NCBI GenBank assembly: GCA_964532665.1
Contig: CAZHMV010000007.1
Location: 12,132-76,131, forward strand
Direction of reading: 5' to 3'
Source: an uncultured Anaerolineales bacterium
Lineage (GTDB): Bacteria > Chloroflexota > Anaerolineae > Epilineales > JAANWY01
Length of the DNA stretch: 64,000 bases
Below the pieces are notes generated by a model that saw only the letters and a list, made by a program, of their open reading frames with translations, did no database searches and was not told where the DNA came from. This document shows positions 14,051-64,000 of this stretch, one piece after another (position 1 is the stretch's first letter; each line of letters starts with the position of its first letter). The translations under genes and the position numbers were made by a program.

Positions 14051-14157
14051 GAGGCCGAGGAGGAGGAAGGGGGAGGATGGAGAATGGAAAATGGAGGATG
14101 GAAGGGGGAAGGAGGAAAGGGGAAAAAGGGAAAAAGGGAAATGGGAGGCGGAATTCG
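14051..14157 (+). repeat. Approx 105-nt polypurine (G/A-only) tract containing GGGGAAAAAGGGAAAAAGGGAAATGGGAGGCGG
   Basis: Read directly; almost no C/T for over 100 nt. Shares the GGGAAAAAGGG / GGGAAAnGAGGCGG motif with tracts at 37866-37908 and 63941-63992. Confidence 0.8.
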
Positions 14158-25287: not shown

Positions 25288-25604
25288 GAATCCTCCAATG
25301 TTCCGCCAGAAGTCTACCACAAATGGAAAACATACGCAACAATGCCACTCAGTGTTTGAGGGCTGCGTATTACTCAGCCCACTCGGCCTGGATTTGACAA
25401 TCCAGGCCAAAGATGACAGAATCAACCCGAAGCTGGTCTGTTTGGCTGCCGGGTCGTTCGACTGATCTCGCGACGAGGTCTGGAGATCCGGCGGGAGCGG
25501 CCGAGTAGTTACGACACACTTTGGACTTTCCCAAGACCTGAATTAGACCTTCGTCGGGTATGTTAGTGGGTAACGACCGATGAAGGAGCCCACACAGAGG
25601 AGGC

Positions 25605-27098: not shown

Positions 27099-27180
27099 GA
27101 CGTGAAACGTGAAACGTAAAACGTGAGAATTCCTACATGCATGGACTGGCCATCACGTTTTATGTTTCACGTTTCACGAG
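27099..27180. repeat. Family A heptamer palindrome: (AACGTGA)x4 - approx 28-nt spacer - (TCACGTT)x4
   Basis: gacgtgaaacgtgaaacgtaaaacgtgag ... catcacgttttatgtttcacgtttcacgag read directly. Same architecture at 40013-40076, 44030-44120, 53394-53470. Confidence 0.85.
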
Positions 27181-28068: not shown

Positions 28069-29472
28069 ATGGAAACACGAACTGAAAGAGACTCCCTGGG
28101 AGAGGTCGGCGTGCCGGCCCATGCCCTGTACGGCGCGCAGACACAGCGCGCGGTGGAGAATTTTCCCATCAGCGGCATTACCTTCCCGCGCGTGTTTATC
28201 CGCGCCCTGGGTTTGATCAAGTACGCGGCTGCTCGGGCCAATGAGGATCTGGGGCTGTTGGACGCGGAGGTGGCCGGCGCCATCCGGCAGGCTGCTCAGG
28301 AGGTCATCGACGGGCAGTTGGATGATCAGTTCCCTATCGACGTGTACCAGACCGGGTCGGGCACATCGACGAACATGAATGCCAACGAGGTGATCTCTAA
28401 CCGGGCAATCCAGATCCTGGGCGGAGAGGTGGGATCCAAGAAGCCAGTTCACCCCAACGACCACGTCAACAAGGGGCAGTCGTCCAACGACGTGATTCCC
28501 ACTGCCATCCACGTGTCTGCGTATCTGGGGGTGACGGAGGATCTGTTGCCGGCCCTGCGCCACCTGCGCGACATCTTGCTCCGACGGGCAGCAGAGTTCG
28601 ATGATGTGGTCAAGACGGGGCGGACCCACCTTATGGATGCCATGCCCATCCGACTCGGTCAGCAACTGTCGGGTCATGCGAGTCAGGTTGACCATGGTGT
28701 CCGCCGGATTGAGGCAACGCTGCCGCGCTTGGCGGAACTGGCCATTGGCGGCACGGCCGTTGGCACAGGCATTAACGCGCATCCGGAGTTCGGCGCTCGC
28801 GTGGCTGCCGCGTTGGTCGAGCTGACTGGATTGCCCTTCCGCGAGGCAGGCAACCACTTCGAGGCCCAGGCCGGCCAGGATGCTGCTGTCGAACTGAGCG
28901 GCCAACTCAAAACCGTCGCCGCCTCACTGATGAAGATTGCCAACGACTTCCGCTGGATGAACTCGGGTCCGCAGGCCGGCCTGGCCGAGATCACCTTGCC
29001 GGCCACTCAGCCAGGCTCGTCCATCATGCCGGGCAAGATCAACCCGGTCATCGCAGAGGCCGTGACGCTGGTCTGCGCCCAGGTCATCGGCAATGATGTG
29101 GCGATCACCATCGGCGGGCAGTCGGGTAATTTTGAACTCAACCTGATGCTGCCGCTCATCGCGCACAATCTGTTGCAGTCCATCACCGTCCTGGCCAACG
29201 CCAGCCGCGTGCTGGCCGACAAGGCGGTGGCCGGTTTCACGGTCAATCGTGAGCACATGGAGAACCTCGTCGAGAAGAATCCAATTCTGGTTACTGCTCT
29301 GGCTCCGCACATCGGCTACGATCTGGCAGCCCGGATCGCAAAGCAGGCCATGGCCGAGGGCCGGCGCGTCCGCGAAGTCGCGCGCAAGATGACCGACCTG
29401 ACGCCCGAGCAACTGGACGAGTACCTGGATGTTTATGCTATGACCCGGGGCGGCATTCCGGGTGAAGGTTAA
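28069..29472 (+). CDS. fumC: Class II fumarate hydratase (aspartase/fumarase superfamily)
   Basis: 467 aa; 'GSSIMPGKINPV' signature, 'SSNDVIPTAIH' closer to the fumarase than the aspartase consensus. Confidence 0.85.
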   Translation: METRTERDSLGEVGVPAHALYGAQTQRAVENFPISGITFPRVFIRALGLIKYAAARANEDLGLLDAEVAGAIRQAAQEVIDGQLDDQFPIDVYQTGSGTSTNMNANEVISNRAIQILGGEVGSKKPVHPNDHVNKGQSSNDVIPTAIHVSAYLGVTEDLLPALRHLRDILLRRAAEFDDVVKTGRTHLMDAMPIRLGQQLSGHASQVDHGVRRIEATLPRLAELAIGGTAVGTGINAHPEFGARVAAALVELTGLPFREAGNHFEAQAGQDAAVELSGQLKTVAASLMKIANDFRWMNSGPQAGLAEITLPATQPGSSIMPGKINPVIAEAVTLVCAQVIGNDVAITIGGQSGNFELNLMLPLIAHNLLQSITVLANASRVLADKAVAGFTVNREHMENLVEKNPILVTALAPHIGYDLAARIAKQAMAEGRRVREVARKMTDLTPEQLDEYLDVYAMTRGGIPGEG

Positions 29473-29476
29473 CTGC

Positions 29477-29578
29477 TCACCCTCCCGCAGGTTGCAACGA
29501 GCAGCGGTTTTGCCCCTCAAACAGGAACCGAGAGCAGCGATGCTTGGCCAGAGAGGGGCTAAACCTGCGGGAGGGTGA
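29477..29578. repeat. Family B element: 17-nt terminal inverted repeats TCACCCTCCCGCAGGTT / AACCTGCGGGAGGGTGA flanking a 68-nt unique core
   Basis: Read directly, 6 nt after the fumC stop. Related copies at 35490-35575 and 40120-40232 with unrelated cores. Confidence 0.8.
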
Positions 29579-29615
29579 ATGATTGCCTTTGTCATTAACA
29601 TAGTTGCTTATCTAA

Positions 29616-29644
29616 TTGACACTACCGGAACTTCTGTGTATAAT
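29616..29644 (+). promoter_or_regulatory. Consensus-matching sigma70 promoter TTGACA-N17-TATAAT for osmC-sodA
   Basis: ttgaca(29616-21) ctaccggaacttctgtg tataat(29639-44); AAAGGAG SD before osmC. Confidence 0.65.
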
Positions 29645-29700
29645 TGAGTTCGCTTTAGTGGTATTGGCGCCTCTGTTCATTAGAAAGGAGTTCCGTTGTA

Positions 29701-30141
29701 ATGGTGGAGATCAAGCGTAGTGGAGAAGGGAGATGGAATGGCGGTCTGCGTGGCGGGACCGGCCAGATCAGCAGCGCCAGTGGTGTTCTCAGCGACACGC
29801 CCTACAGCTTTGGCACGCGGTTTGAGGAGACTGCCGGCACGAACCCCGAAGAACTGATTGCGGCAGCCCACGCTGCTTGCTACAGCATGGCATTTGCAGC
29901 CACACTTGAGAGCAAAGGTTATCAGCCCCAGCAAATCCACACACGAGCCACCTGCTCGCTGACTCGTCAGGAAACGGGCGGCTTCAGGATCACGAAGATG
30001 CGCCTCGAAACGCGCGGGCGGTTAGAGGGCATTGACGAAACCACATTCAAACAGATCGCAGAAGAGGCCGAGGCCGGCTGTCCCGTATCGAACGCGCTGC
30101 GCGGCGGCCTGGAGATCGAGCTCGACGCCGCTCTGGCATAG
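29701..30141 (+). CDS. osmC: OsmC/Ohr family peroxiredoxin
   Basis: 146 aa; paired Cys blocks 'AAAHAACYSMAF' and 'EAGCPVSNAL' of OsmC. Confidence 0.85.
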   Translation: MVEIKRSGEGRWNGGLRGGTGQISSASGVLSDTPYSFGTRFEETAGTNPEELIAAAHAACYSMAFAATLESKGYQPQQIHTRATCSLTRQETGGFRITKMRLETRGRLEGIDETTFKQIAEEAEAGCPVSNALRGGLEIELDAALA

Positions 30142-30173
30142 CAGAGTGGACATAAGTGAAAGGAGATCACACA

Positions 30174-30785
30174 ATGGCTTATCAACTTCCCGACTTGCCG
30201 TATGCTTTTGATGCACTGGAACCGCATATTGACGCCCGGACGATGGAGATTCACCACGACCGGCACCATGCCGGCTATGTCGGAAAAGTGAACGCTGCGC
30301 TGGAGGGGCACCCAGCTCTGGCGGCTAAGAGTATCGAGAATGTTCTACGCGACATTAACAGTGTGCCAGAGAGTATTCGCACGGCGGTGCGGAACAACGG
30401 CGGTGGACATGCGAACCACTCATTGTTCTGGCAGGTCATGAGCCCCAGCGGTGGCGGACAGCCCAAGGGTGCCCTGGCGAATGCGATCAGTTCAGCCTTC
30501 GGCAGCTTCGACGCTTTTCGGGATGAGTTCACGAAGGCGGCGCTCGGACGCTTTGGCTCGGGTTGGGCCTGGCTCGTCGTCGGTGGTACCAATCTTTCTG
30601 TTATTTCCACGCCGAACCAGGATAGCCCTCTCATGGATGGGCAGACACCGATTCTCGGCATTGATGTGTGGGAGCACGCCTATTACCTGAAGTATCAGAA
30701 CAAGCGCGGCGAGTACGTCAACGCCTGGTGGAACGTCGTCAACTGGCCCGAAGTCGCCCGGCGCTTTGAAGCGGCGCGCGGCTAG
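30174..30785 (+). CDS. sodA: Fe/Mn superoxide dismutase
   Basis: '[32 protein letters not shown]', '[11 protein letters not shown]', 'DVWEHAYYL' metal ligands. ATG 30174 with AAAGGAG 7 nt upstream (track GTG 30156). Confidence 0.9.
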
Positions 30786-30813
30786 CCTGTCATTCGTGAC
30801 TGATACGCCGACG

Positions 30814-30852
30814 GAGCGGGAGGAGTCCCAGAGGGGCCCTCCCGCTTTCTCG
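30814..30852 (+). terminator. Rho-independent terminator after sodA (GCGGGAGG..CCTCCCGC TTTCT)
   Basis: 8-bp GC stem, 14-nt loop, T-rich tail. Confidence 0.55.
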
Positions 30853-30857
30853 TGGTG

Positions 30858-30886
30858 CCCCTTCTGATTGACACCCTTGTAGGCGC
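30858..30886 (+). promoter_or_regulatory. Consensus-matching sigma70 promoter TTGACA-N17-TATAAT upstream of the GAF-GGDEF gene
   Basis: ttgaca(30858-63) cccttgtaggcgcatga tataat(30881-86). Confidence 0.65.
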
Positions 30887-30935
30887 ATGATATAATCTGT
30901 TTGCCTAGATTATCGTCCCCGGACCTGCCCCGGCC

Positions 30936-33497
30936 TTGAGCTTTACCGAGTCAGACGTCATGCCTGATTCAGCATCACCTGTTGACAACCATTTGGAAAA
31001 GCGGACTCGCGAACTCGAAGCCCTCAACGCTGTCGCAATGGCTGTGGGCCATTCTTTGGAACTGGACACGGTTATTCGCGAGGCCGTCGATCAGGTGTTG
31101 GCTGTAACTGGCGCTGACGGCTGTGCGGTGTATCTGCGGGAACCCCGATCAGGCGACCTGGTTCTTGCGACCGTAAAAGGCGTCTCCGACGACTTCGCTC
31201 AACATCCGGACATCAACCGCATTCCAGCCGGTGTCGGCTGGTGGGGCCAGATGGCCCGTCACGGCCGGCTGATCATTCTGGAAGACATCGGCGCGCTACG
31301 TCGTCCATCCCGTGAGGCGGTGATCGAAGAAGGGCTGCAATCCGCTGCCTACGTACCGCTGAAATCCAGAGAGCGGTTGAGTGGTGCGATCGTGATCGCC
31401 AGCCGGCGCCCCCGTAAGTTCTGTACCGTGGATCTGGAATTCCTGGCGGCCATTGGCGAACAGATTGGCGTGGCCGTGGAGAACGCACGTCTATACACTG
31501 CGGAACGAATGCGCGTGCGCCAGTTGGCACTCATCAACGAGGTAGCCCGGCGCATTGCAGACACGCTGGACGTGGATGCTGTTCTGGAGCGCGTTGTCAC
31601 GTCTCTTCAGGCGGACTTCGGCTACCAGGACGTGGCGACGTTGTTGCTGGATGTAACCGGCGAGGTGTTGGAACTGAAGGCCGTTGCCGGCGTATTCTGT
31701 AACATGAGCCCTGGGGAATACCGCCAGCCGGTCTCTGAAGGCATCATCGGGCGCTGTGCGCGCACTGGCCAGGTCGCCCTGTCTAATGATGTCACTCAGG
31801 ACCCTGACTACTTTCACGCGGTGAGCGGAGAGCCCCGTGGTTCGGAGTTATCTGCGCCGATCAAGGCGGCCGGCCGCGTGATGGGTGTGCTCGACGTCCA
31901 GAGTGATCGTACCAATGCCTTTGATGAGAACGATGTGGTTGTGATCCAGACACTGGCTGACCAACTGGGGGTTGCTCTGCAGAATGCGCATCTCTTCCGC
32001 CAGCAGGAACAGCAACTGACAAAGCTCCATACGTTGGACGAGATCGCCCGGACCGTCAGCAGCAGCCTCGATCTGGATGAGGCCCTTGATCGGATCCTGG
32101 TCGAGTTGAAACGCGTGGTTACGTACGATAGCGCTGCGGTGTGGCTGGTGGATGGGGATCGTCTCCAGGCACTCGCGGCGCGCAAGCACGGCACCCCTGC
32201 ACCCGACATGGAAGTCACCCTGCCCGTCAACGACCCGTTGTTTCAGGAGGGGCAGCGAACTGGCCAACCTGTGGTTCTGGTGGACGCCAGGGCAGACCCA
32301 CGATTCAAGGGCGTTGGGGGTACCGGTGATGTGGGCGGCTGGGTGCTTGCTCCCCTGATTGTTCGGGATCGGGTCATCGGATGCCTGACAGTGGACAGCC
32401 GCGAGGTCGGAGCCTACGACGCAGAGGATGCTCAGACCATCATGACCTTTGCGCAACATGCTGCCATCGTCCTGGAAAACGCACAGTTGTATGCGCGGAC
32501 GAAGCACCAGTTGGAAGCTCTGGCAGCGATCCACGAAATCTCCATAGATTTGCTGGGTCGGCGCAGGATTGAGGATGTGTTGGAAGACATCGTTCGCCGG
32601 GCGTCTGATCTAATTGGTGCTTCTGGTGCCGGAATCTACCTGTACGATCCGGTGACAAAGCAGCTTACCCTCACCGTCGCAGTGGGGCTGGCTGAAGGTT
32701 TCGTGGGCCCAGTCCACCTGGCGCTAGGTGAGGGACTCGCCGGCCGCGTCGTCCAGACGGGCGAACCGATTTGGGTTGATGACTACGCCGCGTGGGAAGG
32801 CCGATCTGCTCAGTACGCTGACGTACCCTTTCGGGCCTCCATCTCAGTGCCCCTGAAGTATGAGGGGCGGGTTCTGGGGGCGCTGTCCATGTCTGAAGGC
32901 AAGTCGGGGCGTACATTTAGTGAAGCGGATGCATGGCTCCTGACTTTGCTTGCCGGGCAGGCGGCCGTGGCGCTGGAGAATGCGCGGCTGTACGAGGAGC
33001 TTGAGAGATTGGCGACCCATGATGGTCTAACCGGCTTGTACAATCATCGCCACTTTCATGAGTTGTTGGAACGGGAGGTTGAGCGTGCTCAGCGCTATGG
33101 CCATCGATTGGCGCTGCTGATCATCGATGTGGATGGTTTCAAGGGCTACAATGATCGACATGGGCATGTAGCCGGTGATGAGGCCTTGCAAGGTATTGCA
33201 CAGCTTCTGAGACAGGGATGTCGGCGAGGGGACCTCATCGCGCGTTATGGCGGTGAGGAGTTTGCGATTATTTTGCCGGAGACACCTACTGAGGAGGCGG
33301 CGCGAGTTGCCGAGCGCATCCGTCGGATTGTGGAAAACCGCACGCGGAACGTGCCCTTTCTCTCGCCGTTGACCGTGAGTATCGGTGTAGCAGGCTACCT
33401 GGATCGTACCAGCAGTGCAGCGGAACTCCTGATTGCCGCCGACGGTATGATGTATCGGGCCAAGGCTCGGGGCAAGAACCAGGTGGTGAGAACCTAA
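30936..33497 (+). CDS. Multi-GAF-domain diguanylate cyclase (GGDEF)
   Basis: 853 aa; four GAF-like segments, then 'GLYNHRHF...RYGGEEFAIIL' GGDEF active site with RxxD-like I-site context. Confidence 0.85.
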   Translation: MSFTESDVMPDSASPVDNHLEKRTRELEALNAVAMAVGHSLELDTVIREAVDQVLAVTGADGCAVYLREPRSGDLVLATVKGVSDDFAQHPDINRIPAGVGWWGQMARHGRLIILEDIGALRRPSREAVIEEGLQSAAYVPLKSRERLSGAIVIASRRPRKFCTVDLEFLAAIGEQIGVAVENARLYTAERMRVRQLALINEVARRIADTLDVDAVLERVVTSLQADFGYQDVATLLLDVTGEVLELKAVAGVFCNMSPGEYRQPVSEGIIGRCARTGQVALSNDVTQDPDYFHAVSGEPRGSELSAPIKAAGRVMGVLDVQSDRTNAFDENDVVVIQTLADQLGVALQNAHLFRQQEQQLTKLHTLDEIARTVSSSLDLDEALDRILVELKRVVTYDSAAVWLVDGDRLQALAARKHGTPAPDMEVTLPVNDPLFQEGQRTGQPVVLVDARADPRFKGVGGTGDVGGWVLAPLIVRDRVIGCLTVDSREVGAYDAEDAQTIMTFAQHAAIVLENAQLYARTKHQLEALAAIHEISIDLLGRRRIEDVLEDIVRRASDLIGASGAGIYLYDPVTKQLTLTVAVGLAEGFVGPVHLALGEGLAGRVVQTGEPIWVDDYAAWEGRSAQYADVPFRASISVPLKYEGRVLGALSMSEGKSGRTFSEADAWLLTLLAGQAAVALENARLYEELERLATHDGLTGLYNHRHFHELLEREVERAQRYGHRLALLIIDVDGFKGYNDRHGHVAGDEALQGIAQLLRQGCRRGDLIARYGGEEFAIILPETPTEEAARVAERIRRIVENRTRNVPFLSPLTVSIGVAGYLDRTSSAAELLIAADGMMYRAKARGKNQVVRT

Positions 33498-33524
33498 AGG
33501 TTTCTGAAACCTTTAGGTTCTACG

Positions 33525-35378
33525 CTAGCGGTACGGCGCTAGCTCCCACCACACACGGATACTGGCTTCGCCGGTGGCCTCGAAGTAGTCCACACGTACC
33601 TCGTGGGAGCCGGCCGTGAGTTCCACGTCTCCCCGGTGAGTCACCGGGCCGGTCTCGTACCACTCGTCAATGACCAGCCGGCCATCCACCCAGACCCGCG
33701 CCCCATCGTCGTGCTCGGCGAAGAAACGATACGTGGCTGTCTCAAAGCCACGGCGGTCCGTCCAGCGGACAGAGAAGTTGTCGGGTCCGATGTCATCGGG
33801 GCTGCCCTTCTCCCAGTCGAAGTCGATGTCCGCATCATCGCGCACGAAGGCCGGCGCACCTGACAGCGACCGGTTGTCGTAATAGGCGCCACGCCAGCCG
33901 GCGTATGCGTCCAGGTTCTCCCACCATACGCGCACTTCGGCCTTGCCGCCGGCCTCGTAGTATTCAATGCGAATCTCTCGACCCCCGCTGGAAAGATAGA
34001 TGTCCGCTGTGTAGTCCGTTTCGCCGGTCGAGGTATGCCACTCATCAATGATCAATTGGCCGCCTATCCACACCCGCACGCCATCGTCGGCCCGCGCGTG
34101 GAATCGGTACGTGCCGGCATCGAACGATGCAGTTCGAGTCCAGCGCGCTGAGAAGTTGTCCGGAGGAATCTGAGGGGCCGGGCTACTATCGGCCCAGGCG
34201 AAGTTGACATCGAGGTCATTTCGAACGACTGCGGGCGCACCCGAGAGGGACCGGTTGGCATAATATGCGCCCCGCCAGTTCGGGTATCGGCCCAGGTAGT
34301 GCCATTGAAACCGGATCGTTGCGTTCCCGCCGGCATCGAAATACTCCACGCGAATCTCCGTCGGCCCGTCGAGAACCCGCTGGAAGCCATAGGACGTCGT
34401 TGAGGTGACTTTCCACTCATCCAGCACCAATTGACCATCGATGAATACCCGAACGCCATCATCGACTTCGATATCGAATTGATACCCGCCGGACGGGAAG
34501 TCGAACTGGCGGGTCCAACGCACGGAGAAGGCGTCGGCCGGCACATCCGCCGCCGGTGTGCCCTGTCCCCAGTCGAAATCGATCACGCTATCGTCACGAA
34601 CCTGTACCGGGTCTCCTTCAACGTTGGGATTGTCATAATACTCACCGCGCCAGCCCTGGAACGCGGGTGTGGGCGTCGCGGTCGGTGGTGACGTTGGGGT
34701 AGGGCTGGGAGGCAGTGGCGAGGCGGTCTCCGTTGGGTTTACCAGATACAGTCGGGTAACTGCACGACGCCGGCCATCGGCACTCTGGGCAATGATGACG
34801 GCATCCATGCTGGTCAGGTTGGACGGCACCGTCAGCGTTGCCGCGAAGGTGCCGTCCCCGCCTGCCGTCCCCGCCCTGCTTGTGATCTCGGCCTGCTGGA
34901 TTGTCGAACCGATTCCGAGGTCAATCTCTTCTGCCGGCTGCCAGCCGGTTCCGTGAACCTCGACGGATGCCCCGGGCTCGGCCACCTCCTGTACGACGCG
35001 GATGGACGGGCCGGTGCTGAGCGTTGTCGGTGAGGGGGTCGTGGCAGGCTGCGAGGTGGCGCTTGGGAGCGGTGTGGCCGGCCGGGGGCCAACGCTGGCC
35101 GGCGTGCGTGTACGTCGGTAGGCTTCCACCATGGCGGTCAGCGTGGCCCCCGGCGGCGGTGTCGGGAGGATCACCGTCGCGGTGGCTCCTGTGATTGTCG
35201 GTGCTGGCGGGACGGTCGGCGTCTGCTGTGTTCTGACTATCTGGCAACCCGCACTCATCAGCACGAGCAGGACCAGGGTCAGGGCGCGTAGAATAGGGGC
35301 CAAGGGATGGAAGCGGCAGAACGGAGAATGGAGAAAAGTGGCGTGCATGATGCGGGCCTCCTCTGCGGCGCAAGACAC
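33525..35378 (-). CDS. Secreted protein with four tandem PA14 domains and PT-rich linker
   Basis: 617 aa; signal/TM, then four repeats of 'GWRG(E/A)YY(D/A)N..L.G.P...R.D..IDF.W..GSP......FSVRWT...F..G.Y.F....DDG.RV.IDG.L(V/I)(L/I)DEW'. Confidence 0.75.
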   Translation of the reverse strand: MSCAAEEARIMHATFLHSPFCRFHPLAPILRALTLVLLVLMSAGCQIVRTQQTPTVPPAPTITGATATVILPTPPPGATLTAMVEAYRRTRTPASVGPRPATPLPSATSQPATTPSPTTLSTGPSIRVVQEVAEPGASVEVHGTGWQPAEEIDLGIGSTIQQAEITSRAGTAGGDGTFAATLTVPSNLTSMDAVIIAQSADGRRRAVTRLYLVNPTETASPLPPSPTPTSPPTATPTPAFQGWRGEYYDNPNVEGDPVQVRDDSVIDFDWGQGTPAADVPADAFSVRWTRQFDFPSGGYQFDIEVDDGVRVFIDGQLVLDEWKVTSTTSYGFQRVLDGPTEIRVEYFDAGGNATIRFQWHYLGRYPNWRGAYYANRSLSGAPAVVRNDLDVNFAWADSSPAPQIPPDNFSARWTRTASFDAGTYRFHARADDGVRVWIGGQLIIDEWHTSTGETDYTADIYLSSGGREIRIEYYEAGGKAEVRVWWENLDAYAGWRGAYYDNRSLSGAPAFVRDDADIDFDWEKGSPDDIGPDNFSVRWTDRRGFETATYRFFAEHDDGARVWVDGRLVIDEWYETGPVTHRGDVELTAGSHEVRVDYFEATGEASIRVWWELAPYR

Positions 35379-35489
35379 TGCAATTCCTTTCTCCTCTTTC
35401 CAGCCTTTTTTCGCCGAGGGTGCAGCGCTTCCCAGCGTGTTCGGCGACTTCGACGGTTTCTGTTATCAGTACTTGGGAGAACTCAACGC

Positions 35490-35575
35490 TAACCCTCCCG
35501 TAGGTTATCGATTAGACGTCAAGATCGGCTTGGAGCGTATGTTGCATAACATAATCAAAACCTGCGGGAGGGTGG
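35490..35575. repeat. Family B element (TAACCCTCCCGTAGGTT ... AACCTGCGGGAGGGTGG) with 53-nt unique core
   Basis: Read directly in the AT-richer gap upstream of the PA14 gene. Confidence 0.7.
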
Positions 35576-35707
35576 TCAAAAGAAATTCCCAAGTATTGAT
35601 TATACCATATCATCTTGATGCCAACAAAGAAGCCGGCCATTCAGCCGGCTCATACTCCATGTCTTGCCCACGACGGGGGCAGGTTATGACGCTCTCAGCG
35701 GCGGCAA

Positions 35708-36037
35708 CTATTCTTTTATCATGGTGTACAGGATCTGGTTGCCGGCAAAGAACTCAACATCGGCCACGCCGTAGCCTTCATTGAGAAGATCTGCCAGCGC
35801 TTGAGCGCAGTCGGTTCTCAAGCTGACCGAAGATGCTCCGGTGCTGCTACTGATACGTTCAACAGAAAGGCCATCCTGAAGGCGTCCCAACGGGATACAC
35901 GTGAAGATCACCGCTTTTGTGCTTCCCGGGTCCTCCGTCGATTGAGCGTAGATGTTATTCCCATGTCCTGTGCTGCTCACGAGCAAAACCAACACCACAA
36001 GGAGAACGGCCAGAAAAAGCCCACCAATCCTCTTCAC
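35708..36037 (-). CDS. Small secreted hypothetical protein
   Basis: 109 aa, N-terminal signal peptide LFLAVLLVVLVLLVSS. No recognisable domain. Confidence 0.4.
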   Translation of the reverse strand: MKRIGGLFLAVLLVVLVLLVSSTGHGNNIYAQSTEDPGSTKAVIFTCIPLGRLQDGLSVERISSSTGASSVSLRTDCAQALADLLNEGYGVADVEFFAGNQILYTMIKE

Positions 36038-36108
36038 TTCGCAACTCCTTCCCCGATTCGTAACGTAGCCCGGTCCTCGCCAACTAGGATGTCGCCAGGA
36101 TCACGATC

Positions 36109-37290
36109 TTACGTGGCAGGAGGGGGAGTGGCTGCGAGCGCATGTTCGCCACGATTCAGGTGCCAGGTCAGGTATCGGCTGATGATGCGGTCGCCGAGGA
36201 TCCAGCACAGGTGCAGGATTCGCCGGTGGTGGAAGGGGCCGTACGCCAGCCTGGCGAGGCGGGTTTTTAACGTGAGGTCGCGGCCGAGGTGGCTCTTCAG
36301 AATGCGCTGCCGGTAGCCGGCAAAGCTGAAGTCGCCGTGGGTGAAGGCGTGCGCTATCTCCTGAGCAGCCAGGCCGCCGTACATCAGGGCGTGGGAGATT
36401 CCCTCGCCGAAGAGGGGGTCCACGCCGGCCGCGTCGCCAACCAGCAGCACGCCTGGCACGGCGAAGGTTGTCTTCCGATCGAACCAGCGTTCGGGGTGTC
36501 CCTTCAGTTCGTAATCTGCCAGGTCGCGCTGGCGCATCTGGAGAGCCTGGTGGAGGGCTCGTCGCAGATTGCCGCGCAGGTTCGGGTGGACTCGAGAGTC
36601 GAAGATGCCGCGATTCATATACGCCTGGCCGTCGATAAGGCTGGGAAAGTCCCACACATATCCCTGGACTCCCTCGGGCACACAGTCGAAGTCGAGAATG
36701 GCCGTGTGCTCGACGAACGCCGGCGTGGTCTGCGGATCTTCTGGCGTCAGGATTTCCATCAGGCGCGAGATGCGGTTGGGCGGCTGATTCAGACCCATTT
36801 TCTGTCGAACCGTGCTGTTAGCGCCGTCAGCCGCGACGACCGCGCGGGCGCTGAGCGTTCCCTGGCCGGTTTCGACCTCCACGGCCCCGTTGTGCCGGCG
36901 CACGTCGATCACCCGCACGCCGTCGCACACCTGGAGTCCCCGCTGCCGGGCCACTTCAGCCAGCGCTGCATCAAACTCATCGCGCCGCACCACGCGAAAC
37001 AGGTTAGGTGATCGAATCGTGAAGGCGCGGCCGGCGTACTGGAAGCGCGCCGCGTGGATGGGCACCGATGGCACATCGATGTACACGTCCAGGCTTGCCA
37101 GGTAGGCATCTGCCGGCCGGGTAATGCCGCCGCCACACAGCTTCTCCCTGGGGTACGTCTCGCGTTCCAGGATCAGCGTGCGCTCAGCTAGCCGGCGGTC
37201 GAGTCGCTCCAGGCTCAGGCCGGTGGACAGGCCGGCCGGCCCGCCACCGACGATGATGATGTCGTAGTCGTTCGGCAGGTGTCTTTTCAC
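36109..37290 (-). CDS. FAD-dependent geranylgeranyl reductase family oxidoreductase
   Basis: 'YDIIIVGGGPAGLSTG' dinucleotide-binding motif, 'EKLCGGGI', 'LVGDAAGVDPLFGEGI' typical of GGR / digeranylgeranylglycerophospholipid reductase-like enzymes. Confidence 0.75.
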   Translation of the reverse strand: MKRHLPNDYDIIIVGGGPAGLSTGLSLERLDRRLAERTLILERETYPREKLCGGGITRPADAYLASLDVYIDVPSVPIHAARFQYAGRAFTIRSPNLFRVVRRDEFDAALAEVARQRGLQVCDGVRVIDVRRHNGAVEVETGQGTLSARAVVAADGANSTVRQKMGLNQPPNRISRLMEILTPEDPQTTPAFVEHTAILDFDCVPEGVQGYVWDFPSLIDGQAYMNRGIFDSRVHPNLRGNLRRALHQALQMRQRDLADYELKGHPERWFDRKTTFAVPGVLLVGDAAGVDPLFGEGISHALMYGGLAAQEIAHAFTHGDFSFAGYRQRILKSHLGRDLTLKTRLARLAYGPFHHRRILHLCWILGDRIISRYLTWHLNRGEHALAATPPPAT

Positions 37291-37300
37291 TGTCCATTTC

Positions 37301-38653
37301 CTACAGGTTGGGAATGATGAACCACATCAGGCTGATGAGATCCAGCGCAACCAGGCCAGCAATGAGCAGGCCCAGCGCCGCCGGCTGGAGGACCCGAGGC
37401 ACCAGATTTCGGAACCCCAGCGCGGCAAACAGCGCCATGGGTACCAACGCCGGGAACAGGTAGCGTCCCTGGTGCTGTACAAAGGTGAGATTGTACCACA
37501 CGTAGGTGCCGAATGTCAGGATGATGCTCAAGGCTAGCAACCCCAGTGATGCCCATTGCCGGCTGCTGAGGCGGTCTGGATGCCGGATTGCTCGGGCCAG
37601 AAATAGCACGAAGCCGGCCACGCTCAGGGCAGTCAGAATTAGCAGGCCCGTGTATATGCGTTGGTCCATGAACACGCCCATCCAGCCGAAGACGCCCCAG
37701 AAGCTCTTGAATGTGAAATTCCAGGCCCGGTTCCAGTAGGCTGCCCAGCCCAGGCTCGCGATCCAATCCGCGGTGCGGGGCTGTCCGACCACCACTATGT
37801 CGTGACGTTGCCGTCCGAAGATGTCCAGGCCGCCGTACACCACCGCGTTGCGGACAAACCACCACGCAGACAGGGCGAGGGAAATGGAAAAAAGGAAAAA
37901 CAGGGAAACGAGGCGGGGTTTCGATTGGTCACCCCCCTCCAGCCACCAGTGCCCGACTTCGGCTGCCAGCAGGATCGCAGCCGATGGATAGACGGTGCCT
38001 TTGGTGAGCAGTCCTAGGCCGTACAGGATGCCGCCGCTGATCACAAATCTTCGGCGTGGAATACGGCCCTGCAGCCGCAGCAGGCTCACCAGCAGAATGC
38101 CGGCGATGATCAGTTCGGCCAGCGTGTCGTTGTTGATGCCGGCGCTGATGGCGATGTGCATCGGGATGAAGGCCACCAGAGTTGTCGTCGCCAGGGCCAG
38201 CAGTTCGTCGTTGCCAAAGATCACCTTCACCAACTGGTATGTGGTGTACAGCAGCACGGCGCCAGCGGCGACAGAGATCAGGCGCAGCGCGATGACCTGG
38301 GTGGCCGTGGGCAGGCCGGCGGTTGCCAGGAAGAGCGGCGTGGCCAACAGGTAGTACAGGGGCGGCTGCCAGGCCTCGTAGGCGATGCTGTCGATGGACA
38401 TCGACGGCGGGAACCTCGCGTGCTTGATTTCCTCCAGGTACCCGGCGGGGTAGTCGCCGGGTTCCAGGACGGGTAGCCGGCCCGTGTGGGCCAGATCGGC
38501 GATGTAGTTGTAGTGGGCCGGCTCATCGGGCACCTGCCATGCCGGCGTGTCAACCGCGTACGCGATTCCCAGGGCGATGTAGATGGCGATGATGAGTGTC
38601 AGCAGCGGGTGAGCAGTGCGTCTCATAGGTGGGGTGTCCTCACAGCACCTCAA
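37301..38653 (-). CDS. Family-39 glycosyltransferase (PMT/ArnT-like, polyprenol-phosphate-sugar dependent GT-C)
   Basis: 450 aa, approx 12 TM; first periplasmic loop 'WQVPDEPAHYNY' (DE..H motif of PMT/ArnT family). Confidence 0.7.
   Translation of the reverse strand: MRCCEDTPPMRRTAHPLLTLIIAIYIALGIAYAVDTPAWQVPDEPAHYNYIADLAHTGRLPVLEPGDYPAGYLEEIKHARFPPSMSIDSIAYEAWQPPLYYLLATPLFLATAGLPTATQVIALRLISVAAGAVLLYTTYQLVKVIFGNDELLALATTTLVAFIPMHIAISAGINNDTLAELIIAGILLVSLLRLQGRIPRRRFVISGGILYGLGLLTKGTVYPSAAILLAAEVGHWWLEGGDQSKPRLVSLFFLFSISLALSAWWFVRNAVVYGGLDIFGRQRHDIVVVGQPRTADWIASLGWAAYWNRAWNFTFKSFWGVFGWMGVFMDQRIYTGLLILTALSVAGFVLFLARAIRHPDRLSSRQWASLGLLALSIILTFGTYVWYNLTFVQHQGRYLFPALVPMALFAALGFRNLVPRVLQPAALGLLIAGLVALDLISLMWFIIPNL
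37866..37908 (+). repeat. Purine-rich tract GAGGGAAATGGAAAAAAGGAAAAACAGGGAAACGAGGCGG inside the GT39 gene (encodes SLFFLFSISLA on minus strand)
   Basis: Shares the GGGAAA..AAAAAGG..GGGAAAnGAGGCGG skeleton with 14120-14157. Confidence 0.55.
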
Positions 38654-39962
38654 ACCGCTCGCGAATAATCTCTTCCAGCGTCGGCCGGCCTATCACCTGT
38701 AGCTCGTAGCGCACGCGATGTGCCGGCTTGTCGATCTGGATGAGCCGGCCCAGATCGATGGGGGTGGCGATGAGCACCTGGTCGGCCGGCGCGGCGTGGA
38801 TGGTCTCTTCCAACTCTCGGATCTGCTGGTCGCTGTATCCCATGGCCGGTAGCACCGGCCCCGTTTCGGGGTATGTCTCGAATGTCTCTGCAATCGAGCC
38901 GACAGCGTACGGCCGCGGATTGACGATTTCGGCGGCTCCGTATCGCCGGGCAGCCACCACGCCGGCACCGTACTTCATCCCGCCGTGGGTCAGTGTCGGA
39001 CCATCTTCGACCACCAGCACCCGGGCTCCCCGAATCGACGCCGGGTCGTCAACTGAGATGGGAGATACGGCTTCGACCACGATAGCGCCCGGATTCACCT
39101 CCTGAATGTTGTGGCGGACGGTGTTGATGCCCTCGGGGGGGGCGGTGTCCATCTTGTTGATTACCACCACGTCGGCCAGGCGCAGCGTGGTCTCGCCGGG
39201 GTAGTATTGCACCTCGTGGCCGGCCCGGTGCGGATCGACCAGGGTGATGAGCAGATCGGGCTGGAAGAAGGGGAAGTCGTTGTTCCCGCCGTCCCACAAG
39301 ATGATGTCGGCCTCATCTTCGGCCTGGCGCAAGATTTTTTCGTAGTCCACGCCGGCATAGACTACTGTGCCATGGGCCAGATGAGGTTCGTATTCCTCAC
39401 GTTCCTCGATGGTGATGTCGTAGCGTGCCAGGTCGTCGTAGGTCTCGAAGCGTTGCACGGCCATGGCCGAGAGGTCGCCGTACGGCATGGGGTGGCGCAC
39501 CACCACGACGCGGTGGCCGAGATCGCGCAGGACGCCGGCCACGTGCCGGCTGGTCTGGCTCTTGCCGGCGCCGGTGCGGACAGCACACACGGCCACCACA
39601 GGTCGGCGGCTCTGCAGCATGGTGTGGTGTGGGCCGAGCAGTCGAAAATCGGCGCCGGCGGCCAGGACCCGGCTGGCTTCATGCATCACGTACAGGTGCG
39701 AGACGTCGCTGTAGGAAAAGACGACCTGGTCGATGCGTTCCCGCTGAATCAGGTCGGTCAGCTCAGACTCCGGCAGGATGGGGATGCCGTCCGGGTAGAG
39801 GTCGCCGGCCAGATCGGGGGGGTACTGCCGGCCGGCGATGTTCGGTATCTGAGTCGCCGTGAATGCGACGACCTGGTAATCCGGGTTGTCGCGGAAGTAG
39901 ACATTGAAGTTGTGGAAATCGCGCCCCGCTGCGCCCATGATGACGACTTTGTCACGTGCCAT
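38640..39962 (-). CDS. P-loop protein resembling cyclic 2,3-diphosphoglycerate synthetase (cPGS-like)
   Basis: 440-aa; 'AVRTGAGKSQTS' P-loop, overall length/organisation similar to archaeal CpgS. Identity by recollection only. ATG 39962 preceded by AAGGAA; overlaps the GT39 start by 14 nt. Confidence 0.45.
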   Translation of the reverse strand: MARDKVVIMGAAGRDFHNFNVYFRDNPDYQVVAFTATQIPNIAGRQYPPDLAGDLYPDGIPILPESELTDLIQRERIDQVVFSYSDVSHLYVMHEASRVLAAGADFRLLGPHHTMLQSRRPVVAVCAVRTGAGKSQTSRHVAGVLRDLGHRVVVVRHPMPYGDLSAMAVQRFETYDDLARYDITIEEREEYEPHLAHGTVVYAGVDYEKILRQAEDEADIILWDGGNNDFPFFQPDLLITLVDPHRAGHEVQYYPGETTLRLADVVVINKMDTAPPEGINTVRHNIQEVNPGAIVVEAVSPISVDDPASIRGARVLVVEDGPTLTHGGMKYGAGVVAARRYGAAEIVNPRPYAVGSIAETFETYPETGPVLPAMGYSDQQIRELEETIHAAPADQVLIATPIDLGRLIQIDKPAHRVRYELQVIGRPTLEEIIRERFEVL

Positions 39963-40012
39963 GAGTTCCTTGAACCCCTTTCGTCTCAACTAGCTCGTTC
40001 TTGACATCAGAC

Positions 40013-40076
40013 CGCGTAAAATGTGAAACGTGAAACGTGAGGATTCGACATCAAGTACAGTCATCACGTTTCACGC
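40013..40076. repeat. Family A heptamer palindrome (AATGTGA AACGTGA AACGTGA - spacer - TCACGTT TCACGCT)
   Basis: Read directly; lies next to a Family B element in the same 290-nt gap. Confidence 0.8.
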
Positions 40077-40119
40077 TCTGGCTGCTCCACTGAGTGGATT
40101 CAGCCAAGTGCCGTCGCTG

Positions 40120-40232
40120 CTACTCACCCTCCCGCAGGTTTGGAGCCTTTCTGGCTGAGGATCATTGCTTCAAGACCGTTTTTCGGATGCAAAGCCATTG
40201 TGCATGGTAACCTGCGGGAGGGTGCCTGAGTA
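40120..40232. repeat. Family B element with extended 22-25-nt TIRs (CTACTCACCCTCCCGCAGGTT ... AACCTGCGGGAGGGTGCCTGAGTAG) and 68-nt unique core
   Basis: Read directly. Confidence 0.8.
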
Positions 40233-40275
40233 GTAACGTACCATCTTCAGCTCTTGAGGGCTGTCTCTTGCAGTG

Positions 40276-43958: not shown

Positions 43959-44029
43959 GGTGTGTTTGTCGGGCATCAAATGAAGAGTGGCCGCGTGACA
44001 GCCGCGGGCACGGAAACAGCGCAACTCTC

Positions 44030-44120
44030 ACGACGTACGACGTGAAACGTGAAACGTGAAACGTGGATACGACTCCAGGTGTTCATAGGCTATCACGTTT
44101 CACGCTTCACGTTTTACGCC
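44030..44120. repeat. Family A heptamer palindrome (ACGTGAA x3-4 - 30-nt spacer - TCACGTT x3-4)
   Basis: cgacgtgaaacgtgaaacgtgaaacgtgg ... tatcacgtttcacgcttcacgttttacgcc read directly between rpmF and fabD. Confidence 0.85.
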
Positions 44121-44191
44121 CTGGCTCGCGCTCAGGGGAAATGCCGGAATGATAGCGGCGGTGCTGTTGCGTCTGGGGATGGGTAGGCCGC

Positions 44192-48863: not shown

Positions 48864-49709
48864 TTATTGGTCTGTGCCCACAACGCACGCAATTCCAACG
48901 GCGCCCGGGCCGGCGTGGGTGCCGACTACCGGGCCGGCTTCCGTGATGAGAATGCGTTCGATGGGATGTAGTGCTCCCAGCCGCTCCCGGACCTGAGCGG
49001 CCAACTCAGGTGCGGCGGCGTGAATGACGGCCACTTCTTCCAGCGGTAGCCGGTCGCCGGCGATCTGGATCAGTCGGTCTACCGCCCGGCGCATGGTACG
49101 GGCATTTTCCAGCGGCACAAGCTCGCTGTTCTGGAAGGCGACCAGCGGTTTCACGCGCAATAGGGCCCCCATCATGGCGGCCGCCCGCCCGATGCGCCCG
49201 CCCCGGCGCGCGTATTCCAGGGTATCGAGCACGGCCCACAGCCGCAATCTTGGTATCGTCCGCTCGATGAGGTCAAGGATCTCTTCCAAAGCGCGGCCGG
49301 CCCGGGCTGCTCTCGCGGCCAGAATGGTCAACCACCCCTCCGCCATGGCAATCTGCGTCGAGTCTACCACAGTGATCTCGGCGTTGTCGATCACGGCAGC
49401 AGCCGCGCGTGCCGCGTCCAGGGTTCCGCTGACGGTGTCCGGGATGTGGATCGAGATGATCTGATCAGTCTCCCGGGCCAGTCGCCGGTAGACCATCTCA
49501 AAATCGCCCACGGGCGGCTGCGACGTGGTGGGAAGTTCGTCGCTTCCCACCAGTCGGCGATAGAACTCGGCGTCGGACACGTCAACCTTGTCCCGATATG
49601 TCTTCCCGCCGATGACGACAACCGCCGGCACCACCTCGATCTCCAGCTCTCGGCAGATGTCGGGCGGAATGTCGGATATGCTGTCTGTGACGATGCGAAC
49701 CTGGCTCAT
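48864..49709 (-). CDS. DegV family fatty-acid-binding protein
   Basis: 'VRIVTDSISDIP', 'GTHAGPGAVGIA' DegV hallmarks. Confidence 0.85.
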   Translation of the reverse strand: MSQVRIVTDSISDIPPDICRELEIEVVPAVVVIGGKTYRDKVDVSDAEFYRRLVGSDELPTTSQPPVGDFEMVYRRLARETDQIISIHIPDTVSGTLDAARAAAAVIDNAEITVVDSTQIAMAEGWLTILAARAARAGRALEEILDLIERTIPRLRLWAVLDTLEYARRGGRIGRAAAMMGALLRVKPLVAFQNSELVPLENARTMRRAVDRLIQIAGDRLPLEEVAVIHAAAPELAAQVRERLGALHPIERILITEAGPVVGTHAGPGAVGIACVVGTDQ

Positions 49710-49715
49710 GGTCGG

Positions 49716-49792
49716 TGAACAGTGATCAGTGATCAGTGACCAGTGATCAGTAACCAGTAATCAGGATCTGGTCACTGATCACTGGTCACTCG
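49716..49792. repeat. Family C heptamer palindrome: (CAGTGAT/CAGTGAC/CAGTAAC)x6 then (TCACTGA/TCACTGG/TCACTCG)x3, filling the whole yloV-degV gap
   Basis: gaacagtgatcagtgatcagtgaccagtgatcagtaaccagtaatcaggatctggtcactgatcactggtcactcgg read directly. Confidence 0.85.
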
Positions 49793-53339: not shown

Positions 53340-53393
53340 CGATTCTGTCGGGTCGGGAGTTGATCTTCGCCGGACGCGAAGCGACTTCGGCAG

Positions 53394-53470
53394 GCGTGAA
53401 ACGTAAAACGTGAAACGTGAGGATGGGTCAATGAAGAAACTATCACGTTTCACGCTTCACGTTTCACGCC
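53394..53470. repeat. Family A heptamer palindrome (GCGTGAA ACGTAAA ACGTGAA ACGTGAG - spacer - TCACGTT TCACGCT TCACGTT TCACGCC)
   Basis: Read directly between the Zn-peptidase gene and rlmN. Confidence 0.85.
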
Positions 53471-53499
53471 GTTGGGCCGGCGCATCCAACGTTGCCGGC

Positions 53500-60023: not shown

Positions 60024-60674
60024 GTGGCTAACATCATGTCAAACGAAACTCCATTCGTTTTTCGTAAGGTCGTTGTCGGTCCCTGGCCGATGAATACCTT
60101 CGTTTTGATTGACCCATCCGGGGGGAGCAGTATCGTCGTCGATCCCGGCGCCGATGCCAACGCCATCCTGGCGGCCACGTCTGGCCTGCCTGTCTACAAG
60201 ATTCTGTTGACCCATGCCCATCCCGATCACATTGGCGCATTGTCAGCCGTGGCGGGAGCGACGGGAGCGCCTGTGGCGGCCCATGCGGACAGCGCCGGCC
60301 TGCTCGCGGTCCCGCCGGATGATGAACTCCACGACGGCGATGTGGTGCGCCTGGGCGTACGCGAGATTCGCGTGATCGAAACCCCGGGCCACGCGCCTGG
60401 TCACCTGAGTTTCCTGATCGGAAGCGACCTGATTGGTGGCGATGTGCTGTTCCCTGGCGGCCCAGGCCACACCGACACGCCCCAGGACTTCCAGCAGATT
60501 CTCGAGACGATCACGCAGAAGTTGTTTGCCTTGCCGGGTGAGACAGTTGTCCATCCAGGTCACGGCGAGTCTGTGACGATCGGTCAGGCGAAGGCGGAGT
60601 ACGAGAAGTTCGCGGAGCGGCAGATGCCGGCGGATCTCTGCGGCGACGTGACGTGGGAACCCAGTGAACAGTGA
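60024..60674 (+). CDS. MBL-fold metallo-hydrolase (glyoxalase-II-like)
   Basis: 'LTHAHPDHIGA' HxHxDH, 'ETPGHAPGH'. Confidence 0.85.
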   Translation: MANIMSNETPFVFRKVVVGPWPMNTFVLIDPSGGSSIVVDPGADANAILAATSGLPVYKILLTHAHPDHIGALSAVAGATGAPVAAHADSAGLLAVPPDDELHDGDVVRLGVREIRVIETPGHAPGHLSFLIGSDLIGGDVLFPGGPGHTDTPQDFQQILETITQKLFALPGETVVHPGHGESVTIGQAKAEYEKFAERQMPADLCGDVTWEPSEQ

Positions 60675-60748
60675 ACAGTGAACAGTGATCAGTAAACAGT
60701 GAACAGTTGACTGATGACTGATCACTGTTCACTGATCACTTTGGTATC
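60661..60748. repeat. Family C heptamer palindrome (CAGTGAA x3, CAGTGAT, CAGTAAA, CAGTGAA, CAGTTGA | CTGATGA CTGATCA CTGTTCA CTGATCA), near-loopless cruciform; first units encode the C-terminal ...SEQ* of the MBL gene
   Basis: Read directly; ends 9 nt before the DUF123 gene start. Confidence 0.85.
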
Positions 60749-63405: not shown

Positions 63406-64000
63406 TGCTCATTATACACGGTACAGTTGTCACCTTTGGGAGTGACTGGCGGATCATCGAAGACGGCGCTCTCCACATCGACGCGGATCGCATCACCGAC
63501 GTCGGCACGACAACCGAGTTGACGGTTCGATATCCCGATGCCGAGATGCTCGACGCTGCCGGCAAGCTGGTGATGCCCGGCAATATCTGCGCCCACACGC
63601 ACTTCTACGGCACGTTCGCCCGCGGTCTGACCATTCCAGGTCCCCCGATGAAAAATTTCCCCGAGATTTTGGCCCGGCTGTGGTGGCCCCTGGACCGCAG
63701 CCTGGACGAAGAGGCGATTCGCTACAGCGCCCTGGTCCCTCTGGCCGACGCGATCCGCCATGGCACCACGACACTGATTGACCACCACGCCAGCAACTGC
63801 GCCATCGACGGCTCCCTGGACATCATCGCCGAAGCGGTGGGGCAGGCCGGCCTGCGAGCGTGCCTGTGCTACGAGGTGACAGACCGGGATGGGCCGGAGG
63901 TGGCGGAGGCGGGGATACGGGAGAATGAGCGGTTTATTCGGAGGGAAAAAGGGAAAAAGGGGAGAAGGGGAGAAGGGAAAAAGGAACTTCTGGCCGGCAC
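63406..64000 (+). CDS. Amidohydrolase-family (SsnA/chlorohydrolase-like) protein, 3' truncated by window edge, with Lys/Gly-rich insertion encoded by a polypurine tract
   Basis: 'MLIIHGTVVTFG', 'GKLVMPGNICAHTHFY' metal-binding HxH. Not in ORF track because it runs off the window. Confidence 0.65.
63941..63992 (+). repeat. Polypurine tract GGAGGGAAAAAGGGAAAAAGGGGAGAAGGGGAGAAGGGAAAAAGGAAC lying in frame in the amidohydrolase gene (encodes EKGKKGRRGEGKKE)
   Basis: Read directly; shares GGGAAAAAGGGAAAAAGGG with 14120-14145. Confidence 0.7.

Follow-up and report, generated by a model that had tools for sequence, protein, structure and literature searches.

Three short inverted repeats in an Anaerolineales genome are probably old copies of a widespread family of miniature transposable elements

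Three inverted repeats between genes

We analyzed a 64,000-nt stretch of the genome of an uncultured Anaerolineales bacterium (contig CAZHMV010000007.1; "the window" below means this whole stretch), in which three short repeats lie between genes, the first and the third of them directly 3' of fumC and tatC. Each consists of a pair of inverted 16-mers, CACCCTCCCGCAGGTT and AACCTGCGGGAGGGTG (the inner arms), around a variable core. The evidence set out below makes it likely, with a probability of about 0.88, that the three are old copies of a family of miniature transposable elements with inverted repeats (MITEs) that is widespread in Anaerolineae, has ends of the IS66/ISBst12 type and was moved in trans; the copies in the window are probably immobile. 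Their positions are given here together with the scores, in bits, of a covariance model (R1) built from an alignment of oriented copies.

29469 to 29586, minus strand (model orientation): probable MITE copy 1, 118 nt; 56.3 bits on the minus against 52.4 on the plus strand
35463 to 35608, minus strand (weak orientation call): probable MITE copy 2, a variant subfamily; 37.4 against 33.9 bits
40108 to 40115, no strand: 8-bp target-site duplication beside copy 3, decayed, left-hand octamer, GTGCCGTC
40116 to 40237, plus strand: probable MITE copy 3, the most complete, 122 nt; 69.9 bits on the plus against 38.7 on the minus strand
40238 to 40245, no strand: 8-bp target-site duplication beside copy 3, decayed, right-hand octamer, GTACCATC

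The inner arms are located at 29478-29493 and 29562-29577 in copy 1 (separation, 68 nt), at 35491-35506, with 2 mismatches, and 35559-35574 in copy 2 (52 nt), and at 40125-40140 and 40209-40224 in copy 3, where they are perfect and again 68 nt apart. With up to three mismatches allowed, the 16-mer CACCCTCCCGCAGGTT or its complement was matched eight times in the window against an expectation of 1.05, and none of 100 shuffles gave eight or more; six of the eight matches are arms of the three copies. Positions and shuffle test therefore bear out the original prediction, made from the letters of this stretch, that three copies with nearly identical inverted 16-mers are present, and its statements that all three are intergenic and that a GCCCCTC/GAGGGGC stem lies within the core of copy 1 also held. 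The boundaries it had drawn were too narrow, as the family runs 11 to 16 nt further out on each side, up to GTAAC...GTTAC. Nor does copy 1 begin 6 nt after the fumC stop codon, since this codon (29470-29472) falls inside the end of the copy.

The three copies are preserved to different degrees. In copy 1, one outer terminus, TTAACTGCTCA (29469-29479), is intact and supplies the TAA stop of fumC, the usual bulge of 4 to 5 nt is missing, and the right outer terminus (29578-29586) is decayed or lost, with no recognizable second terminus; no target-site duplication could be detected around it. Copy 2 has decayed outer termini and is embedded in a 146-nt unit (35463-35608) that carries a further outer inverted repeat, ATCAGTACTTGGGA/TCCCAAGTATTGAT. 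This unit is 91% identical to positions 562-707 of locus L095, from another Anaerolineae metagenome-assembled genome (MAG), with unrelated flanks. No target-site duplication was found at copy 2, and a metagenome scan for the 146-nt composite gave one unrelated AT-rich contig and nothing relevant. Copy 3 has an outer stem CTACTCA/TGAGTAG, a 4-nt bulge (TGCC) and perfect inner arms. The octamers on its two sides, GTGCCGTC and GTACCATC, have 6 of 8 positions in common and lie at the offsets of the perfect duplications seen in other family members.

The cores had been described as completely unrelated, which stands only for that of copy 2. Copy 1 matches the reverse complement of copy 3 at 71% across 101 nt, and the two cores, one of them reverse complemented, agree at 39 of 68 positions without gaps, with a global alignment z score of 5.3 and none of 2,000 shuffles as good. 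This likeness had remained hidden because the copies were compared on one strand only. The orientations that the covariance model assigned to copy 1 (minus) and copy 3 (plus) agree with the core comparison. Both cores can also be aligned to cores from other MAGs (L064 and L038); L064 is the nearest relative of copies 1 and 3 among the matches listed, and its duplication is preserved at 7 of 8 positions. The 52-nt core of copy 2 resembles neither of the other two, and among the cores collected only one other, from the MAG of L095, is like it.

The full element and its distribution in Chloroflexota

To find further copies, we searched a set of genomes, one from each species, for CCCTCCCGCAGG-N50-80-CCTGCGGGAGGG, that is, paired 12-mers with exact arms. 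At least 109 loci were found, 10 of which, among the matches listed, were palindromes of sphingomonads and Maricaulis that fit the pattern by coincidence. The remainder amounts to more than 95 loci, itself a lower bound, and those among the matches listed came from 26 Chloroflexota MAGs, nearly all of them Anaerolineae. The spacing from arm to arm was tightly constrained, mostly 91 to 97 nt among the matches listed. Because exact arms were demanded by the scan, the invariance of the arms among these matches holds by construction and says nothing about selection. Many copies with unrelated flanks is the dispersal expected of a MITE, and family members occur in either orientation and in every kind of intergenic context. 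Fresh copies are found, for instance, in Thermoflexales JTS-AC224 (JBGSMF01), in Anaerolineae H23_313 (DAOTYG01) and in CSMAG_2273 (JAUWHR01).

A consensus of 53 oriented and aligned copies gave a full unit of ca. 120 to 124 nt with the organization GTAACTGCTCA-CCCTCCCGCAGGTT-core-AACCTGCGGGAGGG-TAGGC-TGAGCAGTTAC and with GTAAC at both termini. The inverted repeats are thus ca. 25 to 30 nt at each end, divided into an outer stem (GTAACTGCTCA/TGAGCAGTTAC) and an inner stem (CCCTCCCGCAGGTT/AACCTGCGGGAGGG), and the conserved 16-mers by which the repeats were noticed are a subterminal part of the inverted repeat rather than its true ends. A 5-nt insert (GCCTA/TAGGC) at one end gives the element polarity, and the conservation of the flanks is accordingly asymmetric, with GTAACTGCTCA directly before the arm on one side and CTGCTCAGCCTA before the arm on the other; the 53 copies were oriented by this difference. 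Units are 100 to 130 nt long and non-coding, as expected for a MITE, the copies in the window measuring 118, 146 and 122 nt. Once oriented, the cores align across copies (e.g., TTTGGGCGCAAT...AATCGC.C.TC), which is the outcome that had been named in advance as the mark of an ordinary decayed MITE.

Two kinds of reduced or altered relatives indicate which part of the element matters. Core-less mini versions retain the termini with the core almost wholly deleted (e.g., L014 5419-5498). In the same MAGs, other elements of 89 to 124 nt have the same outer termini, GTAACTRCTCAG, and perfect 8-bp duplications, together with unrelated interiors and no CCCTCCCGCAGG stem:

L013, 789 to 908: element with the same termini, without the CCCTCCCGCAGG stem
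L013, 1085 to 1185: element with the same termini, without the CCCTCCCGCAGG stem
L035, 2213 to 2301: element with the same termini, without the CCCTCCCGCAGG stem
L098, 1888 to 2011: element with the same termini, without the CCCTCCCGCAGG stem

Taken together, the stem-less relatives and the core-less versions suggest that the outer 14 nt or so are a shared recognition sequence and that the core is dispensable; judging from these sequences, several MITE families appear to share one transposase recognition end. At 25501-25512 the window also contains a solitary CCGAGTAGTTAC, one mismatch away from the outer terminus of the MITE and with no partner nearby, which may be a relic end or a chance match. 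AACCTGCGG may resemble the 3' terminus of 16S rRNA, a likeness that was put down to coincidence.

Many MAG contigs start or stop inside a MITE copy (L006, L027, L035, L037, L044, L051, L075 and L110, among others), and the repeat therefore breaks short-read assemblies. Head-to-tail arrays, all from MAG JALUTT01 among the matches listed (L008 2225-2772, L094 4543-5482 and L109 6368-7952), have a period of 109 to 114 nt and up to ca. 14 units made of inner arms and a conserved core, without GTAAC termini; in L008 an open reading frame (ORF) of 352 amino acids spans the array. A scan of a viral collection gave one palindrome of the sphingomonad type (L118) and one element with inner arms and without GTAAC termini (L119 4568-4662, on a 19-kb contig). 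The repeats of sphingomonads and Maricaulis (L019, L041, L043, L047, L060, L061, L067, L076, L087 and L107, plus the viral L118) consist of two palindromes, CCCCTCCCGCAGGCGGGAGGGG ... CCCCTCCCGCCTGCGGGAGGGG, and are a different, REP-like family.

Transposition footprints and ends of the IS66/ISBst12 type

Target-site duplications, which the original prediction had proposed looking for, are present in many members of the family. Perfect 8-bp direct repeats stand right outside GTAAC...GTTAC in 14 of the 19 full-length copies, and two more have 7 of 8 positions identical. When the search was made without reference to the ends, a perfect 8-mer duplication was found in 26 of 113 copies, against a mean of ca. 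0.8 and a maximum of 4 in a control in which the flanks of different elements were paired. Measured outward from the inner arms, the offsets of the duplications cluster at 11 and 16 nt, which is exactly at the GTAAC termini, and duplications of 8 bp at these termini are a signature of DDE-type transposition. That the octamers are instead part of a conserved target motif is unlikely, because they differ at every site (e.g., CCAAGGAG, CATTACAG, GATTTGTC and TACAATTG).

Comparison with related genomes showed that the element is absent at both of the gene-linked sites of the window. At the site of copy 1, three fumC relatives (L115 to L117, with FumC 91%, 90% and 85% identical) have no match to R1 within 3 kb. 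Their fumC genes terminate in TGA or TAG (L115 4400-4404; L116 4400-4404) rather than the TAA of the window, and the genes located 3' of them differ, a small ORF and an aldehyde dehydrogenase being found where the window has OsmC directly. A rearrangement adjoining the insertion could explain the lost terminus of copy 1. At the site of copy 3, three tatC relatives (L121 to L123, with TatC 85 to 86% identical) have spacers of 10 to 106 nt after tatC, with no match to R1. Empty sites were also sought by comparing flanks among the listed loci, where only other repeats turned up.

The termini are informative as to the type of transposase. The hallmarks of the IS66 family are inverted repeats of 20 to 30 bp starting with GTAA and direct repeats of 8 bp (PMC11946415), and both are found here, as the ends start with 5'-GTAA and 8-bp direct repeats flank the insertion site. 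ISDge4 of Deinococcus geothermalis, a member of the ISBst12 group of this family, makes direct repeats of 8 bp and has the ends GTGACTACTCAGCA and GTAACTGCTCAGCA (PMC12898284); it is 1,469 bp long, encodes a single transposase of 448 to 449 amino acids and is present in 8 copies (PMC12898284; PMC8369957). The MITE end GTAACTGCTCAGCC matches the published inverted repeats of ISDge4 at 13 of 14 positions over the outer termini (GTAACT[A/G]CTCAGCC), and the two also have slightly unequal ends in common. Unlike ISDge4, which is autonomous and belongs to another phylum, the element described here is a non-coding one of ca. 122 nt with an additional GC-rich stem in subterminal position, CCCTCCCGCAGGTT, that is not reported for ISDge4, the comparison covering the 14 nt quoted.

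With the known bacterial MITEs (Correia/NEMIS, ERIC/IRU, MITEAba12 and MITEPsy1) it shares its small size, the lack of coding capacity, multiple intergenic copies, terminal inverted repeats, target-site duplications, long hairpins and subfamilies that have ends but not interiors in common. It differs from them in its Anaerolineae host, its IS66/ISBst12-type ends and its 8-bp duplication. Searches of the literature gave no paper linking MITEs with Anaerolineae or with ISBst12, and the terminal 11-mers were met there only in unrelated primers and barcodes.

In the mechanism that we propose, a DDE transposase from the ISBst12 group of the IS66 family would recognize the outer 14 nt or so and mobilize the elements in trans, and the expected autonomous partner would be an IS66/ISBst12-type element with GTAACTRCTCAGC termini. 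The ends alone would be required in cis, leaving the core free to differ between subfamilies or to be lost, and a requirement limited to the ends would produce the conserved ends and variable center that first drew attention to these repeats.

Hairpin structure and alternative explanations

The consensus fold obtained with RNAalifold is one long stem in which a 3'-side bulge separates five outer from 15 inner pairs, with no conserved pairing or covariation in the core of the aligned copies. The check for covariation gave paired changes in the outer stem only (CTGCTCA/TGAGCAG, CTACTCA/TGAGTAG and CTGTTCA/TGAATAG). The window copies fold very stably on both strands (-33 to -60 kcal/mol; z scores of -3.7 to -6.1), while the small hairpins in their cores differ among them. 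No Rfam match was found in the whole window at the gathering score, and between 29300 and 40400 with E values up to 5 there were only two unrelated weak matches. Gene context, taken from crude gene calls (longest non-overlapping ORFs), placed 26 oriented copies between co-directional, 9 between divergent and 8 between convergent genes; at gene 3' ends 21 were in sense and 26 in antisense, with no orientation bias and with examples of each of the four gene arrangements. An intrinsic terminator would show a T-run after the stem, and the window copies have none on either strand. Any effect of the hairpins on neighboring transcripts would be a by-product.

The general look of the elements could suggest mechanisms other than a DDE transposase. 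REPINs and BIMEs of Proteobacteria, two inverted REP units that form a hairpin and spread as single-stranded DNA by a domesticated Y1 transposase (RAYT), likewise have inverted arms, a less conserved spacer, a length of ca. 100 nt and an extragenic location; our collection also contains short hairpins of this stem that stand alone, and the tandem arrays of one MAG recall BIME clusters. However, Y1 transposases leave no duplication, and the perfect 8-bp duplications indicate a DDE enzyme, as do the GTAA termini. A single arm is not palindromic, no recurrent protein family occurs near the elements, and where copies are closely spaced the intervening ORFs are ordinary genes (PNPOx, LexA, NUDIX, LysM and TPR) with no Y1 transposase among them. 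This reading was dropped once the duplications were found, and we regard it as very improbable.

The original prediction had also offered a structured module, attC-like or RNA-like, in which only the closing stem is under selection, an idea opposed by the lack of strand bias, of core covariation and of Rfam matches and by the footprints of transposition. For a non-coding or cis-regulatory RNA with a variable central region one could cite the very stable hairpins, the compensatory changes in the outer stem and the polarity of the elements, but copies stand alike between divergent, convergent and co-directional genes, the consensus fold is a long stem and nothing else, and subfamilies of a transposon would in any case be expected to show paired changes in their inverted repeats. 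With the pattern of presence and absence and the duplications showing insertion, such an RNA has only a slim chance of being the explanation. Sites of the attC type, recognized as a folded single strand by an integron-type tyrosine recombinase, show a superficial likeness in the succession of outer stem, asymmetric 5-nt bulge, inner stem and variable center. Flanking 8-bp duplications are nevertheless incompatible with site-specific recombination, the termini are GTAAC/GTTAC and not RYYYAAC/GTTRRRY, the copies are single, in both orientations and beside housekeeping genes (fumC, tatC, lexA-like and NUDIX), and no integrase or cassette array is present, so that this is scarcely credible.

A different possibility is that these are indeed MITEs and that the host has co-opted the GC-rich inner stem after insertion, as a stabilizer of mRNA 3' ends, a block to read-through or a site of protein binding. 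The inner arms of the window copies are perfect or nearly so and their duplications and outer termini decayed, copies 1 and 3 lie directly 3' of fumC and tatC, several MAGs retain short hairpins built on this stem, and two bystander copies (L098 341-404 and L100 3653-3713) have compensatory changes in the arms. Against this, intact arms were the basis of selection both for the scan and for the original prediction, bystander copies found without it often have mismatched arms, no T-run follows the stem, and orientation and context look random; we consider co-option unlikely. In a variant that is slightly less likely again, the host or a second factor would retain the subterminal stem of 14 to 16 bp as a module, such as a hairpin recognized by a protein or an RNase. 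Such retention would account for the survival of the stem in old copies with decayed outer ends and duplications, the persistence of core-less mini-hairpins and the terminus-less tandem arrays of 1.5 kb in one MAG.

Some observations weigh against old MITE copies with IS66/ISBst12-type ends. None of the window copies has a perfect duplication (6 of 8 positions in copy 3, none in copies 1 and 2). The link to IS66/ISBst12 would follow from end sequence and duplication length, over the 14 nt quoted in the paper on ISDge4. That the inner arms are near-perfect and the outer ends beside them decayed could be a sign of some constraint other than transposition, although this contrast is biased because the scan and the original prediction had both selected intact arms. 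Finally, the cognate transposase was looked for, and neither the window nor ca. 750 kb of loci yielded a gene for one with these termini. In those loci, a search for sequences of up to 4 kb bounded by GTAA...TTAC and a perfect duplication returned only elements of 130 nt or less; all-versus-all clustering of 687 ORFs of at least 250 amino acids gave no high-identity, multi-copy family of the kind expected of a transposase; and looking for an autonomous element that shares the inner arms gave a few lone half-sites, which are decayed copies or chance matches. On balance, the 8-bp duplications, the IS66/ISBst12-type termini and the empty sites in relatives support a MITE family with diverged cores, as the original prediction had put forward among its options.

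Other repeats were met in the same material. Long hairpins with (CGTGAAA)n against (TTTCACG)n arms and loops of 22 to 33 nt occur in the window at 27099-27178, 40003-40085, 44029-44123 and 53383-53472; one of them adjoins MITE copy 3 and is absent from the spacers of the TatC relatives, and they may be another repeat family. A second family of heptamer inverted repeats, of the (CAGTGAT/CAGTGAA)n type with arms of 35 to 38 nt, is found at 49706-49782 and 60648-60740, and purine-only tracts (GGAGG and GGGAAAAA repeats) at 14058-14145, 37866-37910 and 63932-63992. In MAG JALUTT01, a repeat of ca. 155 nt that is unrelated to the MITE (L025 ca. 5134-5290, plus L057, L094, L031 and L056) is 93 to 98% identical among its copies.

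For annotation, the assignment means that an abundant repeat of Anaerolineae can be labeled an IS66/ISBst12-type MITE and not a candidate RNA or recombination site, and it explains why many Anaerolineae MAG contigs end inside a repeat. The MITE marks recent transposition where its duplications are perfect and ancient insertions elsewhere, including the window. It opens no new biological question and is a clean example of conserved ends and a free center in a MITE.

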